Shown here: piece after piece, positions 56,280-64,000 of the stretch | Layout: every line of letters begins with the position of its first letter | How positions within the stretch are numbered: the first letter of the stretch is position 1 | DNA from: Eledone cirrhosa | Taxonomy: Eukaryota | Direction: 5' to 3' | Length of the DNA: 64,000 bases | Assembly (NCBI GenBank): GCA_964016885.1 | Contig: OZ024742.1 | Location: 365,800,001-365,864,000 of the forward strand | Translations under genes and position numbers: made by a program | Notes under the pieces: model-generated | Databases searched by the model: none | Seen by the model: the letters and a program-made list of their open reading frames with translations, nothing else | Told to the model about the DNA's origin: nothing

Positions 56280-56341
<62 letters not shown>
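56280..56341. repeat. (TA)n microsatellite
   Basis: About 30 perfect TA units. Confidence 0.98.
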
Positions 56342-56345
<4 letters not shown>

Positions 56346-56538
56346 GAAACACACAGATACATGCGGACACACACATATATACATGAATGCATCCGCACCC
56401 AACTGTGAGTTAAGGGTGCCAACTTCACCGATGTTGCTCAACATCGGTGAAGTTGGCACCCTTAACTCACAGTTGGGTGCGGATGCATTCATGTATATAT
56501 GTGTGTGTCCGCATGTATCTGTGTGTTTCTTAATATAT
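56337..56538. mobile_element. Perfect fold-back palindrome (100-bp arms, 2-nt CT loop), MITE-like
   Basis: 56337-56436 is the exact reverse complement of 56439-56538, checked base by base. It lies at the end of a (TA)n tract. The MITE interpretation is inference. Confidence 0.75.
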
Positions 56539-56950
56539 TAATAACTCCCTCTGGTCGAACAATCTTTGAAGTGTGGGGACAACTGGAAAGCTTCCATTAC
56601 TCATACTTCTCGCCTTCTTCACTACCTCTTCTACGGCCTCGATATGAATACCCCCTCCGCCTCCGTGGTATTCTCTTCGTGGTTATAAGAGGCTTAGCTC
56701 TGTTTCTCGACCGTTATATCGCGTGACTATCTCCCCCTCCGCCTTTTGGGATTCTTTCTCACGTCGTGTAGACGCGTTCTTGAGACTAGTAAAATGAGGT
56801 ATCCTCTTGATAAGTCGGCAGACCTCGCAAGAACTCTATATCTTTGATATATTGTTTTTGTTTATGCCACGAAACTACGTAGTCGAGGAATTTAGGAACA
56901 GTTTAGGTATGATACATTTTATTACTAATTATATCTAAATGTTTCTTCTC
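56539..56950 (+). mobile_element. Non-coding Penelope-like/retrozyme-like fragment carrying a hammerhead ribozyme
   Basis: CpG-containing island between microsatellites with an internal direct repeat CCCCCTCCGCCT (56651, 56733) and a hammerhead at 56802-56889. Boundaries are approximate. Confidence 0.5.
56802..56889 (+). ncRNA. Type I hammerhead ribozyme, U3-A8 core variant, palindromic stem III
   Basis: Stem I TCCTC/GAGGA; core TTGATAA (CTGATGA with compensatory C3U/G8A); stem II GT(c)GGCA/TGCCAC extended by GCAAGAAC/GTTTTTGT and TATATC-TTT-GATATA; GAAA at 56871; stem III ACTACGTAGT (self-complementary); GTC triplet with predicted cut after 56884. Confidence 0.8.
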
Positions 56951-57911: not shown

Positions 57912-58039
57912 AAGAATGTTTTCGAAACAGCGAGCGGGTTTGAAATTATTATAAATGTAAGCTATCGCCGTATTTTGACTAAAGAAATTAAAGAAATTAT
58001 TTAGCCTGGTAGGGGTGTTAAGAACCCTCGGAGAAATGG

Positions 58040-58044
58040 AAAAA
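58040..58044 (-). terminator. Candidate Pol III terminator (T5) downstream of the tRNA-like unit
   Basis: TTTTT on the minus strand about 10 nt after the cloverleaf 3' end. Confidence 0.45.
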
Positions 58045-58053
58045 GATGAGTAT

Positions 58054-58125
58054 TGACGTACATGGGAGTCGAACCCACATCTTTGGTTATCCAGACCACT
58101 GTGCTACCATTTACACGAACACATG
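58054..58125 (-). pseudogene. tRNA-like cloverleaf (tRNA-derived Pol III unit or pseudogene; nominal anticodon GGA)
   Basis: Acceptor CATGTGT/GTACGTC (6 of 7 pairs including G-U), D-arm GTGT-AAATGGTA-GCAC, anticodon arm TGGT-CTGGATA-ACCA, T-arm GTGGG-TTCGACT-CCCAT (B box GGTTCGACTCC). The short variable loop and T37 are atypical for a true tRNA-Ser. Confidence 0.7.
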
Positions 58126-58215
58126 TGTTGGTGTAAATGGTAGGGTTCTTAACACCCCTACCAGGCTAAATAATTTCTTTAATTTCTTTAGTCAAAATAC
58201 GGCGATAGCTTACAT

Positions 58216-58220
<5 letters not shown>

Positions 58221-58295
<75 letters not shown>

Positions 58296-58722: not shown

Positions 58723-58930
58723 TGAAGGCTGATGGCTGGAGAGTAAGGTCGTCCACCAGTCTGACCACTGTACCATGTCGCTCTCTAAAGATAGGACCAC
58801 CTAACAACTATGTAGCTCTTATGTGGAGGAGGTGAGAAAGGAGGGACAAGGAAGCTAAGAAAACTTAGAAATCTCTCATATGTCATATGAAGCACCTCTT
58901 CATATTGGCAGGCTTTATTATATTACTACT

Positions 58931-59117
58931 AAGGGCGGTGGATTGGCAGTATCGGTAGAGGGTCGGACGCCATGCTTTCCAGCATAGTTACGTCCCTTTA
59001 CGATCTGAGTACAAATCCCGCCGAGGTTGACTTTGCCTTTCATCCTTACGGGGTCGATAAAATAAAGTACCAGTAATGCACTGGGTAATTGCTGGCCTTG
59101 TGCCTAAAGTAGAAACA
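58931..59117 (+). mobile_element. tRNA-derived SINE copy 1 with 14-bp target-site duplication
   Basis: A-box TGGCAGTATCGG and B-box-like GAGTACAAATCCC. Highly similar to the copy at 60071-60259. ATTATATTACTACT occurs on both sides (58917-58930 and 59118-59131). Confidence 0.85.
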
Positions 59118-59265
59118 ATTATATTACTACTGATACTTTCTTTCTTTATACGTATGTCTGCAGCATGTGGCTGTCTGCTGTGTGTATGTGTGTGTGTGTA
59201 CATATGCTTTGTGTAATTGTATGTGTGAATGTGTACATTTGTAAGTATGTATTTGAAACAAATAT

Positions 59266-59295
59266 ATTCACGAGCATACTCTAGAATTATATATA

Positions 59296-59364
<69 letters not shown>

Positions 59365-59422
59365 TATATACACACACACACACACACACATATATATATC
59401 ATTCTAGAGTATGCTCGTGAAT
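59266..59422. repeat. Inverted repeat (22-bp unique arms) enclosing mirror-arranged (TG)n-(TA)n-(CA)n
   Basis: ATTCACGAGCATACTCTAGAAT (59266-59287) versus ATTCTAGAGTATGCTCGTGAAT (59401-59422). The interior microsatellites are also complementary. Confidence 0.85.
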
Positions 59423-59877
59423 GTATATATATATATATATATACATATATGTATATATATATTTATAAATGTGTGTGTGTGTGTGTGAGTGTGTATGTGA
59501 GTGTAATAGTGTGTTCATGTGCTTATTTATAAGTATGTACTTCAAACGTAGAAAGAATCAGAAATCTATTGTTTGGTTCTGTGTACAGGTTAATGTAGAG
59601 AGACCTATGTTGCTACTTAAACCTACGTCTACATGTGATATATGTCTCATATCAGTTCTCATGTAAATATATATTTACATACATGGATGCACACATGTAT
59701 GTATTGTTCTGAAATTCAGTAAACATGTTTTTCGTTGAATTGACATTTCTACAGTGCGGGGTTATATCTGCCTCAGTTGTGGGAAATATGGCGGCGAGGA
59801 TTTCTCCTTCTCTTCGTTGATATCCTGCTATTATCAACTGTCAATCGAATAATAATAATAAGAATAATAATAATAAT

Positions 59878-60051
59878 GGTTTCTGACTTAGGCACACGGC
59901 CAAATATTTTTAGGGGAAGGGAAAGTCGATGAAATTGACCCCAGTGTGTGACTTTATTTTATGGACTCTGTAAGGATGAAAGGTAAAGCTAACCTCAGAA
60001 TGTAAAGAGCCATAACTCTGCCGTGAAGCATGGTGTTGTTATACTGCCAAA
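59878..60051 (-). mobile_element. Degenerate SINE copy 3 (same or related family)
   Basis: Shares TAAGGATGAAAG, ACTTTATTTTAT, AAGCATGG and ATACTGCCAA blocks with copy 2. Flanked by (AAT)n at 59848-59877 and about 60050-60070. Confidence 0.7.
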
Positions 60052-60070
60052 TAATAATAATAATAATAAT

Positions 60071-60259
60071 TGTTTCTACTTTTGGCACAAGGCCAGCAAT
60101 TACTCAGTGTATTACTGGTACTTTATTTTATCGACCCCGTAAGGATGAAAAGCAAAGTTAACCTCGGCGGGATTTGAAGTCAGACCATAAAAGGCCGTAA
60201 CTCTTTGCTGCAAAGCATGGCGTCCGACCCTCTACTGATACTGCCAATCCACCGCCCTT
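60071..60259 (-). mobile_element. tRNA-derived SINE copy 2
   Basis: Reverse complement starts AAGGGCGGTGGATTGGCAGTATC like copy 1, has B-box-like GACTTCAAATCCC, and ends CCTTGTGCCAAAAGTAGAAACA followed by (ATT)n. Confidence 0.85.

Positions 60260-60264
<5 letters not shown>

Positions 60265-60312
<48 letters not shown>
60265..60312. repeat. (AAT)16 microsatellite between the LINE 3' end and SINE copy 2
   Basis: Directly visible. Confidence 0.97.
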
Positions 60313-60314
<2 letters not shown>

Positions 60315-63300
60315 TTTCTTTATTAACCACAAGGGTGTACATAAAGTAGACATTAAGGACAGTGCAGGACAATACAGGACGGTACAAATGGGCATTTCTG
60401 CGTGTAAAAAAACAAAAAAAACAGAGGGTGTAACAAAAATAACAATGAAAAATTCCCCAATAGGGGGGAGACTTCGGAGGGACATTTGTGGAGAAAGCCC
60501 AGTAAAAAGCCACAATGACCCTGACCACCAAGGCAAGTGCCCTCTCCGAGTTTTCCACCTTTAATTTACAGATATATACTCAGAGTAGGCCCATTCACTC
60601 GGGCCATTCTTGCTTCTCTCACCCATCTTTCAACAAAATGCTGGGAAAAGAGCACTTCCCTCTCTACTCTGATTTTCCTTTTCAAATGAAATTTGAAAAA
60701 GTCAATCAGAGCATCACCGAAGAGGTAAGTGCTCGTCTTCAGCGCTTTCAAACGTGTCCACCATACTATCTCTTTCGCCATGGCCACCAGAGAGATAAAA
60801 ACTGCCTGCTCTTCCCGGCTAAAGGAGGAGGGCGGGGTAATCCTCACGATGGACTCAGATGATAGCCGGATCCGTCCTAAACGCGACAGCAGGTGTTCGA
60901 CATAAACCCACAAGTCAGCAATTTTCGGACACTGGACGAGTGCGTGCAGGACGGTTTCGTCGCCCTGCGCGCATCTCGGACATGCCCGGCTGACGGCACC
61001 TCCATGCCTGTAGAGTTTATCCCGAACTGGCAAGGCTCCTCGGTAGCACTGCCAGGCCAGAGATTTCTGGAAGTTGTCCATAGGCCCTGGCCCGAAAGTT
61101 CTTCCGAAGAGATTGGCTAGTTGATTTTTGTCGACGCCTAGAGTTTCCCCAAGTACGTCGTCGCTCTTCCCCTCCACTAATCCTCTATAGAACGCCGAGG
61201 TGGAGTTTCCACCGATCACATTGCCCGATTGGTCGAGGGCTGTGAGCGCCTGAAGAGATTCCAGTCTCCAGGCGCTCCCTCTCGGTCTTCGCTTGACCCA
61301 GGACTGCAGCTCCGTCAAGGAAACGAGCTGGGGAAATAAGTGTCTAGCAAACGGCGACCACACCTGATCACAGTCGAGGAAGAGGTGAAGATGTCGTAGC
61401 CTGAGCGCGTGTCTGCTCATCATCAGCCACGGCATGCCCAGCCCTCCACGTAGCGGGTGTGACAGCAGATGGACCGCCTGACCATCGGAGCGCGTCCCTT
61501 CCACAAAAAGCTCCAGCGCAGTCAGGCGAGGCTTAGGACAAGGTACGACGGTCAGGCGGTAGCAGATAACAGACGACGCGATGTACGCGTTAGCCACCTC
61601 CGCTCGACCTTTCAGGGATAGCTTCCTCTCCGCCCATTTCTGGGTGAGAGAAGCCACCCTGCTCGTCACCTCGTCCCAGTTTTTGTCCGTCTGGAGGTCC
61701 GGACCGAACCAGACCCCTAGCAATTTAACCGGTCCGTCCGTCCAGCGTCCGACAACGCTGTTGGACGGCATGGACCTGCCTCTCCAGGTGCCGAGCTGCA
61801 GGCCCACTGACTTTTCCTGGTTGATCATTGCTCCTGTCACCGCTTCGTATTCTCTTAGTGTAGTGCCGATCGCCTCGATGTGTTTGGCGTTCGACACCAC
61901 TACGGTGACATCGTACGCATATGCTGACACGGATCTTCCGCATCCTAGTTCGCGCGGGACGCCCCTCAACGTCTCCAGTTTGTGCAGTAATGGCTCGAGA
62001 GTCAATACGTACAAGAGGGACGAGAGGGGACATCCTTGGCGGACCGAGCGCATGATGTTGAACGGTTCCGACAGGTGACCGTTCACTCTCACCACAGAGC
62101 AGATGTCGCTGTGCATGGCAGCGATCGAGCCTCTGAAGACGGGCCCAAAGCCAGCCGCCCTCAGGACTGCCGCTAGGTAACGATGGTCGACCCTATCGAA
62201 AGCTTTCGACTGATCTAAATTGATCAAGGACCCACCCGTGCCAGGTTCCCTAGCTACCCTCTCTACGATGTATCGCATGAGGTGGAGGTTGTCGTGGATG
62301 GTTCTGTCGGGAATGGCACATGTCTGCGCCTCTCCCACCAGACCACCAACGACAAGCGCCAACCTCTTTGCTAGCACCTTGGCCAAAATCTTGAACTCTG
62401 TGTTTAGCAGAGTTATGGGCCGGAAATGATCTATGTTATCCCCCTTGTTCGGATCCTTTCTCAGCAGTCCCACCGCTCCTCGGCTCACAGAACTGGGAAT
62501 TCTCCCGTTCTGTTGCCAGTTGCAGTAGACGTCCGCCAAGAGGCCTCCGAACAAGTCTGGCATCTGTACGTAAAGTTCATAGGGCAGACCATCCAAACCA
62601 GGCGATTTACCCCTTGTGCAGCCAGTCATTGTCTCCCTTACTTCAGCGGCTGTTATCGGCTTTTCGCAACACTTCGCCTCAGTGGCCGAGAGCCGCGGCA
62701 GTCCGTCGAGGTAGACACTAAAGTCCATCCCTCGACCCGGCCCACCGCTGCCCCCGAACAGCTGAGCGAAGTGTCGCTGAAAAGCTTCACACATTTGCCC
62801 GGGATCGAGTATCATGCGCCCATCGTGGTCCACCAAAGACCGGATCGTGGTTTGTTGCCACGACGCGCCTCCGCCACTCGGGCCCATTGAACAGCTTTCG
62901 TCCCCTCGTGTCTGAGAGCACGTACCCTTGCTCTGACAACGCAGCCTTCGTGCTTTGCATTGAAGAATTGGTCAAGGGCCAATTTCGCCGCAAGCACGTC
63001 GGTCGCAATGCCTTTGCTAAGCGCCTCGTCTAATTTTCTAACTAGTTCTCCCTCTGCTCTATTTTTCTCTATTGCTAAAGCCTTACTAAACCTAATGGAT
63101 TCTATTCTAATCGCTCTTTTCAGAGCAAACCACCACTTGTTGTTGACGATGGCCCCCGTCAACGCCCGCTTAACTAGTTCGCTAATCCGGTCTCTGTAGG
63201 CCTTGCGCGCTGGTAAGGACGCGTTTAGCTTCCAGTAGCCGGGTCCTCGTCTATGAAGCCTATCTAAGTCAAGCACACAGATCACGAATTTGTGGTCCGT

Positions 63301-64000
63301 GTAGCTGATTATCTTGAATTGTGGACAGCCTATGCTACACCTATCTATTTCCCTACAAAATACTCTATCTAGATATGATCTGGATGACGCTATGCGATTT
63401 GTCCAAGTCCACATTGGCACATTCGGGAAATCCAATCGGTACCTGTGAGACAGTTCAAAACGCCTGAGCAGGTTGGTAAGGCTCTTGCACCCTCCACCCC
63501 TATCCGCTAATCCCACACAGTCCCAGCGTGCATCTAAGATCCCGTTCCAGTCGCCCACTAACACTAAAGAGCGGGACGTTCCAAGAAAGGTCTCCAGACG
63601 CCGGAAGAAATCAGGCCGCCCTGCTCCTGTCGGGGCATAGACGGCCACTAGCCTGAAAGCTTGCCCGTCTCCGCTGGTCACGTCCAGCACCACCAGCTTA
63701 TCCTCTGGGTCCAGGAGGATGGCTCGTATGGCGAGATCCAAACCTCTCCGAAAAAGCACAGCAACTCCTCCCCCCAATCCAGGACGGCTGGGAGATGCGT
63801 ACACATCGTAGCCGCCGAAGATCGGTGCGAAGGCCCGTGCTTCGGAGATTCTGGTCTGGCCACTACATCTATGTTTAGTGACCTGAGGTCGTTGAGCAGG
63901 TGACCCTGCTTCCATGACGACCCCAAGCCACGCGCATTTATGCTGCCTATTCTGAGTGAGGTCATGTTTAAAATAGAGTGGAAAAGATGGGAAAGACCAC
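60313..64000 (-). mobile_element. Non-LTR retrotransposon, Tx1/L1 clade (ORF2 and 3' UTR; 5' part outside the window)
   Basis: GC-richer segment encoding APE endonuclease, reverse transcriptase and C-terminal Cys/His motifs. The 3' UTR has AATAAA (60319-60324, minus strand) and abuts (ATT)n. Confidence 0.93.
60566..63965 (-). pseudogene. Disrupted LINE ORF2 (APE endonuclease - reverse transcriptase - zinc-finger-like C terminus)
   Basis: APE motifs SINARG, AVYAP, LVGDWNG, TWTN, YLDRVF, TDH. RT motifs KSPGLDGLP, FRPITLLNTEFKILAK, LDQSKAFDRVDH, VRQGCPLS, YAYD (for YADD), LLGVWFG. C-terminal CPRC..ETVLHALVQC. Frameshifts at about 63860 and 62850, plus a compensating pair at about 61512/61461. 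Confidence 0.92.

Follow-up and report, generated by a model that had tools for sequence, protein, structure and literature searches.

Which enzyme copies a short interspersed element (SINE) whose 3′ end resembles that of the long interspersed element (LINE) beside it, and are the ATT repeats that adjoin both elements a target or a tail? A 64,000-base stretch of Eledone cirrhosa DNA (contig OZ024742.1, positions 365,800,001 to 365,864,000; 'the window', analysed on both strands) raises these questions, as it holds a broken L1/Tx1-like LINE and three SINE copies among (ATT)n tracts. From sequence comparisons we propose, with a probability of about 0.6, that the SINE carries a tail from the L1/Tx1-like lineage and would be copied in trans at ATT-rich sites by that lineage's open reading frame 2 (ORF2) protein (ORF2p). 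A sequence-only reading of this DNA had suggested a Tx1/SINE partnership; the idea holds insofar as true 3′ ends in the LINE lineage match the SINE tail, but falters as a pairing with the adjacent LINE's own family.

The SINE tail and the 3′ ends of related LINEs

The pattern CC[TG]TGTG-N8-AGAAA-NN-ATT has exactly four matches in the 64 kb, one at the 3′ end of each element, with equal spacing and no poly(A) after any of them, which bears out the common ending described earlier. All three short elements belong to a single SINE family. SINE1 and SINE2 agree at 173/187 aligned bases; SINE3 has the same head, core and end, but is missing ~13 nt at its start and 16 nt that include the B-box-like motif, and its tail is ~30 nt longer. 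Motif sharing among the SINEs is therefore plain homology, and with one SINE family and one LINE end the window offers just one SINE–LINE comparison; counting the three SINEs as independent support was rejected for this reason. When ATT is excluded, the LINE-versus-SINE end score is reached by shuffled 3′ untranslated regions (UTRs) in 23/5000 (SINE1), 161/5000 (SINE2) and 310/5000 (SINE3) cases, and by LINEs with the last 65 nt shuffled in 32/5000, 306/5000 and 241/5000. This similarity is modest (p 0.005–0.06), real for SINE1 and marginal for SINE2 and SINE3.

A broader comparison comes from outside relatives of the LINE, retrieved by ORF2 protein alignment alone, with the UTRs left out, as 38 overlapping loci (L001–L038) from one assembly, nine of which served as representatives. 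Their ORF2s are ~40% identical to the window ORF2 and fall in two lineages, L001 and L002–L038, ~50% identical to each other. Together with the window ORF2 they form one clade (support 97/94) in a tree whose 34 rows were hand-picked from the matches and include no named Tx1 reference (Tx1L, Kibi, Koshi, Keno). The contigs (CAXXMW01..., 13–94 kb) are filed as a bacterial metagenome-assembled genome (MAG), but are evidently eukaryotic DNA: in them, intact two-ORF L1/Tx1-like LINEs are arrayed head to tail, in units of ~6.4 kb. A separate ORF1 with a CCHC knuckle is present in L020 and L001 (PF00098, E 1.6e-4 and 1.8e-3).

Array-specific spacers (~17 nt in the L020 group), with no poly(A), separate the copies. 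Because the ~17-nt spacer follows the same end before full-length and 5′-truncated copies alike (L034, L027), that end is the true LINE 3′ end. It consists of a CCTTCCCC block, GGCCTNGTGCC, a second hairpin and AATAAA, follows the pattern CCCTTCCCC...GGC-CTNGT-GCC...AATAAA, and is kept between L001 and the L002–L038 group. GGCCTNGTGCC is present in element orientation at each of the 38 loci (47 matches, overlaps counted twice), 18–22 nt upstream of the terminal AATAAA, and none of the 47 ends bears an ATT or poly(A) tail.

Two AATAAA signals lie ~240 nt from each other in the relatives' 3′ UTR. The sequence bounded by them is conserved across both lineages and includes two terminal hairpins, of which the second has arms that vary but stay complementary. 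A view of these 240 nt as a separate target gene was set aside, as the spacer also precedes truncated copies. Scans of this stretch in 8 (Rfam) and 13 (tRNA) of the 38 loci gave no match.

The SINE tail meets the relatives at precisely this end. The best local match of SINE3 in the 4.4–6.4-kb unit lies within the last 70 nt in 8/9 representatives, and for the last 55 nt of SINE3 the relatives' end outscores every other 80-nt window in 9/9 (0 of 418–624 each). Against L002, the SINE3 tail aligns without gaps at 28/36 nt. A covariance model built from the nine relatives alone, run over the 64 kb, gave four matches, of which the first three were SINE3 (E 0.015) followed by SINE1 and SINE2 (both E 2.2). 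The SINE tail is likely derived from the adjacent LINE's L1/Tx1-like lineage. The homology between SINE end and LINE end that characterizes stringent pairs is thus found against the lineage, but is weak against the adjacent copy.

A predicted hairpin that has a 5-nt loop describes what the ends share better than the linear motif proposed at first. The window LINE keeps the loop of the SINEs with two compensatory stem changes (G-C to A-U and G-C to C-G), and across the 13 ends compared 3/4 stem pairs are doubly changed, which 0/500 shuffles reach. Among 20,000 shuffled UTRs, 42 have a hairpin of this class in their last 50 nt and 9 have one no more than 5 nt from the SINE register; the non-satellite part of the window has five such hairpins, four of which are element ends. 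Pairing probability is 0.8 or more in 6/9 relatives. The loop-to-end spacing of 24 nt and the AGAAA-NN-ATT end are common to the SINEs and the window LINE, and are not found in the relatives.

Several results weigh against deriving the tail from this lineage, or against the hairpin as its signature. Taken alone, SINE1 and SINE2 are weak matches to the relatives, over an 11–14-nt hairpin only, and 0–42 of 418–624 windows reach the score of the relatives' end. The last 55 nt of the window LINE are at background (14–178 of 418–624), and the LINE is absent both from the four matches of the relatives-only model and from 15 matches in a further model search. The data from the window genome amount to three SINE copies and one LINE end, and 8/9 representatives are 92–94% identical in ORF2, leaving just two independent outside lineages. 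The tail comparison covered L1/Tx1-like ends, as opposed to cephalopod CR1, L2, RTE or Dong ends. The hairpin is short (3–4 pairs), its pairing probability is 0.08–0.17 in the four window elements (77-nt context), the LINE end folded alone favours a shifted register, and no end exceeds shuffles in folding stability. Moreover, the covariation depends on three cells, and the LINE was already known when the hairpin class was defined. The LINE end might instead match the relatives' internal AATAAA, a comparison that is borderline in 2/9 and not significant in 7/9. Finally, a spurious translation resembling the SINE tail (P0245) has no ATT-type run after the tail.

Target, tail and mobilizer

The proposed copying in trans could proceed as follows. 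The tail would have been captured from an ancestral family of the LINE lineage, with SINE3 representing the long form and SINE1 and SINE2 having lost ~30 nt. ORF2p could then bind the hairpin loop (C-U-U/C-G-U), by analogy with stringent L2 elements (PMC4176376; here and below, statements about cited papers refer to the accessible portion of their text). The APE domain would nick the (AAT) strand, giving a target-site duplication (TSD) that starts with ATTAT. Because (ATT)n offers no T4 terminator, transcripts would run into the flanking repeat, and the AUU units in them could base-pair with the primer left by the nick, in which case target and tail would reinforce each other. Repeated insertion in one tract would produce the LINE–SINE2–SINE3 chain.

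That the adjacent LINE's own family is the mobilizer is a tentative assignment, to which we give less than even odds. In a possible but rather unlikely alternative, this LINE takes no part beyond sharing the ATT hot spot, and the SINE is moved by a sister family that retains CCCTTCCCC and the unaltered GGC/GCC stem. This alternative is a sub-case of the copying in trans proposed above, and denies only the specific pairing with the adjacent LINE. The SINE tail is indeed closer to the 40%-identical relatives than to its neighbour. In addition, a Sepia pharaonis protein (P0126), 74% identical to the L001 ORF2 and grouped with it (100/99), places an L001-type sister lineage in coleoids, where it could be the real partner, and O. 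vulgaris has 80 L1-Tx1 families, 13 of them recently active (PMC13282606). Set against these points, the 24-nt loop-to-end spacing and AGAAA-NN-ATT end unite the SINEs with the neighbour alone, whereas the relatives have their second hairpin at that position.

As for the target, ATTAT starts the 3′ flank in 3/3 SINE insertions, compared with a background of 22/10,380 positions, in which no (ATT)4+ tract occurs. If ATT were a target, (ATT)n might be expected in the 5′ flanks as well; among the window copies this applies to 2/3 SINEs, SINE1 being the exception. SINE1 is bounded by exact 14-bp duplicates starting with ATTAT, as reported before, and the ATT that follows it lies within the TSD and so is not a tail. 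On the minus strand, the order is LINE-(ATT)16-ATATA-SINE2-(ATT)7-SINE3-(ATT)5 CTT (ATT)4, so the elements are separated only by (AAT)n, as first described, except for the 5-nt ATATA before SINE2. The lack of an ATT tail in the relatives favours ATT as a target, and it is fairly probable that ATT serves as the endonuclease target.

Another possible but rather unlikely reading is that slippage generates (ATT)n as an RNA tail, which pairs with the primer at loosely chosen nicks with no sequence-specific endonuclease, as has been proposed for RTE elements. In RTE-related elements, 3′ microsatellites correlate with the first TSD base (PMC6007223), and pairing through a 3′ repeat would produce identical junctions. 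The missing tail of SINE1 is compatible with a short tail hidden in the TSD, and within the chain the ATT on the 5′ side of an element may be the tail of its neighbour. By contrast, a repeat tail is found on 0/47 relative ends, Tx1-clade families often target microsatellites (PMC4494074, PMC3812793), and three elements lie co-oriented in one ATT tract while many nearby (TA)n and (TG)n tracts are without this SINE.

It is distinctly less probable that another clade (Dong/R4 or CR1/L2/RTE) mobilizes the SINE and that the L1/Tx1-like matches reflect chance or an inactive relic. TAA microsatellites are the target of Dong (PMC3812793), recently active LINE insertions in O. vulgaris are most numerous for Dong-R4 (1129 versus 421 for L1-Tx1, in the accessible figures), published mollusc SINE partners, as far as the accessible text goes, are of CR1, L2, Nimb or I types, and the raw blast E of SINE3 versus the relatives (L002) is just 0.051. 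Yet the match sits at the extreme end of both SINE and LINE, in two blocks with identical spacing, and the matching end is present in two LINE lineages that were retrieved without reference to UTRs. Finally, it is very improbable that the chain was copied as one unit by 3′ transduction or template switching, an account that would be silent on repeated targeting: the single LINE AATAAA, 6 nt before the repeat, makes read-through plausible and all three elements are co-oriented, but the chain had to arise somewhere through insertion at ATT, and SINE1, whose TSD starts with ATTAT, inserted independently.

The elements and their setting

Positions of the elements and their parts are collected in Table 1.

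Table 1 Features of the LINE/SINE cluster (window coordinates)
Feature	Position	Strand	Basis	Detail
SINE1 5′ TSD	58917..58930	+	flank comparison	14 bp, ATTATATTACTACT, begins ATTAT
SINE1	58931..59117	+	alignment	full length, 187 nt, no tail
SINE1 A-box-like motif	58944-58955	+	by eye versus consensus	
SINE1 B-box-like motif	59007-59018	+	by eye versus consensus	
SINE1 predicted 3′ hairpin	59094..59104	+	folding, covariance model	GGC-CTTGT-GCC
SINE1 end motif	59096-59120	+	regex	
SINE1 3′ TSD	59118..59131	+	flank comparison	14 bp
Repeat 3′ of SINE3	59848..59877	-	motif scan, flank analysis	(ATT)5 CTT (ATT)4
SINE3 end motif	59875-59899	-	regex	
SINE3	59878..60049	-	alignment	same family
SINE3 tail module	59890..59925	-	relatives' 3′ ends	CCCTTCCCC, A run, GGC-CGTGT-GCC at 59891-59901
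Repeat between SINE2 and SINE3	60050..60070	-	motif scan	(ATT)7
SINE2 end motif	60068-60092	-	regex	
SINE2	60071..60259	-	alignment	full length
SINE2 predicted hairpin	around 60084-60094	-	folding	TGGC-CTTGT-GCCA
Repeat between LINE and SINE2	60265..60312	-	motif scan	(ATT)16
LINE end motif	60310-60334	-	regex	
LINE 3′ UTR	60313..60565	-		253 nt
LINE AATAAA	60319-60324	-		
LINE terminal hairpin sequence	60326-60336	-		ACC-CTTGT-GGT
Broken LINE ORF2	60566..63965	-	domain search	APE endonuclease, RT, zf-RVT

As short non-coding interspersed repeats of 172–189 nt, in three copies and with a 14-bp TSD, the short elements have the defining properties of SINEs. The family is likely transcribed by RNA polymerase III. 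Its 5′ and 3′ ends pair like an acceptor stem on folding, and box-like motifs are recognizable by eye; ARAGORN and Rfam were negative for a tRNA head, as was a strict search for the box pattern. No CORE, Deu, Meta or Ceph central domain was matched in published supplements by short-word look-up, as distinct from alignment. Further copies numbered zero in a contig collection searched with a 24-nt core pattern, and blastn gave none in plasmids or phages. The translation of SINE1 had five matches in a protein library, of which two short ones were inspected, neither reaching the 5′ flank. SINE1 and SINE2 form an inverted pair (58986-59122 and 60066-60202; 92% complementary, 943 nt between) that could yield double-stranded RNA upon transcription across both.

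The LINE copy is broken: its ORF2 is split over three frames, with changes near 63846 and within 62854-62968, and its reverse transcriptase (RT) motif reads YAYD, versus YADD in the relatives. The 5′ part, ORF1 included, lies beyond the window end. ORF2 contains an N-terminal APE domain and an RT, as is typical of the Tx1 clade (PF03372, E 3e-10; PF00078, E 4e-24; PF13966, E 1e-7), and its best solved-structure matches are to L1 ORF2p (E ~1e-35) ahead of R2 (1e-19), just these two families among 10. Names of atlas matches to ORF2 include the LINE-1 ORF2 family. We label the element Tx1-like from motif patterns; no named Tx1 sequence is among the matches listed to its ORF2. Dong elements have a restriction-like endonuclease and no N-terminal APE domain, and on this distinction the APE domain places the window LINE outside Dong/R4. 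Among named proteins, the closest to its ORF2 is one of the octopod Argonauta hians (65% identical, grouped 100/100). A further protein in its clade, P0007 (64% identical), is annotated to a Herbaspirillum MAG, which suggests animal LINE DNA inside a bacterial record. Just upstream of the terminal hairpin, the 3′ UTR has three 10-bp tandem repeats (60356-60386).

The cluster lies less than 10 kb from the edge of a ~54-kb satellite (bases 1-54436; 25/28/53-bp units, ~25% GC), after which the window continues as microsatellite-rich DNA and closes with the minus-strand LINE, which exits it. At 57947-58223, 82-nt perfect inverted arms surround a 113-nt spacer, inside which is a tRNA-Ser(GGA)-like gene (58054-58125, minus strand; Rfam 37 bits). 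Near-perfect palindromes, which are either real or assembly fold-backs, lie beside or around (TA)n tracts at 56332-56543 (105-nt arms, 98%, 2-nt spacer) and ~59262-59422.

Relation to known SINE–LINE systems

SINEs that borrow LINE ends are an old principle. SINEs rank among the main components of octopus genomes (PMC8967140, PMC13282606), making up 11.6% of that of O. vulgaris (PMC13282606), and their autonomous partner is unnamed in the accessible text of the literature searched (including PMC3531059, PMC5786205, PMC11481361 and PMC5804259). A SINE–L1/Tx1-like pairing is likewise not named in that literature, a search whose scope ended short of Repbase Reports, Dfam and Ohshima and Okada (1994) on octopus SINEs, any of which may already record it. 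The tRNA-derived octopus SINEs OR1 and OR2 (Ohshima and Okada 1994, as cited in PMC4758252 and PMC4824008) are likely from the same host group, and could include the family seen in the window.

More broadly, an invertebrate L1/Tx1-like lineage with stringent recognition of a conserved 3′ RNA hairpin could have changed over to an (ATT)n target in octopods and could drive octopus SINE expansion, a scenario that we consider speculative and, as a whole, rather unlikely. If true, this would be the first animal SINE with an L1/Tx1-derived tail, seeding and extending its own ATT target tracts. Confirmation of the pairing would provide an example from animals of stringent recognition of 3′ ends by the L1/Tx1 group, would bear on whether the poly(A)-only recognition of mammalian L1 is derived, and would add a new microsatellite target; the 11-nt hairpin, with its natural compensatory variants, makes a precise test possible.

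Target preference in Tx1 has been defined as one sequence in over 20% of flanks (PMC4494074), and a telomere-specific Tx1 is cited in PMC10088271. Like the window LINE, Kibi at (TC)n, Koshi at (TTC)n and crocodilian Tx1 families at (TTCC)n/(TTTC)n are APE LINEs that abut a microsatellite, but no (ATT)n target or partner SINE is described for them in the accessible text (PMC4494074, PMC3812793). Dong (R4 clade), abundant in octopus, has the same trinucleotide target class (PMC3812793); the window LINE differs in its N-terminal APE domain and L1-like RT. The crocodilian SINEU/Tx1-Mar system resembles the present one in that a SINE is proposed to be mobilized by a target-preferring Tx1 family, with tandem insertions at a shared target (PMC4494074). 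SINEU has U1/U2 heads, poly(A) tails and a Mariner target, with no LINE of the same 3′ end described in the accessible text (PMC4494074), whereas the window SINEs have a shared 3′ module, a putatively tRNA-like head and an (ATT)n context. SINEU, the sole Tx1 partnership found in the accessible literature, is thus built on a shared target and not on a shared end.

Recognition of a shared end is the property of stringent L2 pairs: in UnaL2/UnaSINE and ZfL2, ORF2p reads a 3′ stem-loop whose loop gives specificity, the model adopted here (PMC4176376). Those elements belong to another clade and their binding has been demonstrated, whereas here we infer binding, to a much shorter hairpin. Among 58 SINE/LINE pairs in Table 1 of PMC3747384, L1-clade tails are listed in grasses and a green alga only, with no Tx1 and no cephalopod in the accessible text. 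In these pairs (ZmSINE2/3 with LINE1-1_ZM; SINEX-3_CR with L1-1_CR), which are plant and algal, unlike the animal elements described here, an L1-group LINE and a SINE share a short compensatory 3′ hairpin, as the LINE and SINEs of the window may also do (PMC3747384).

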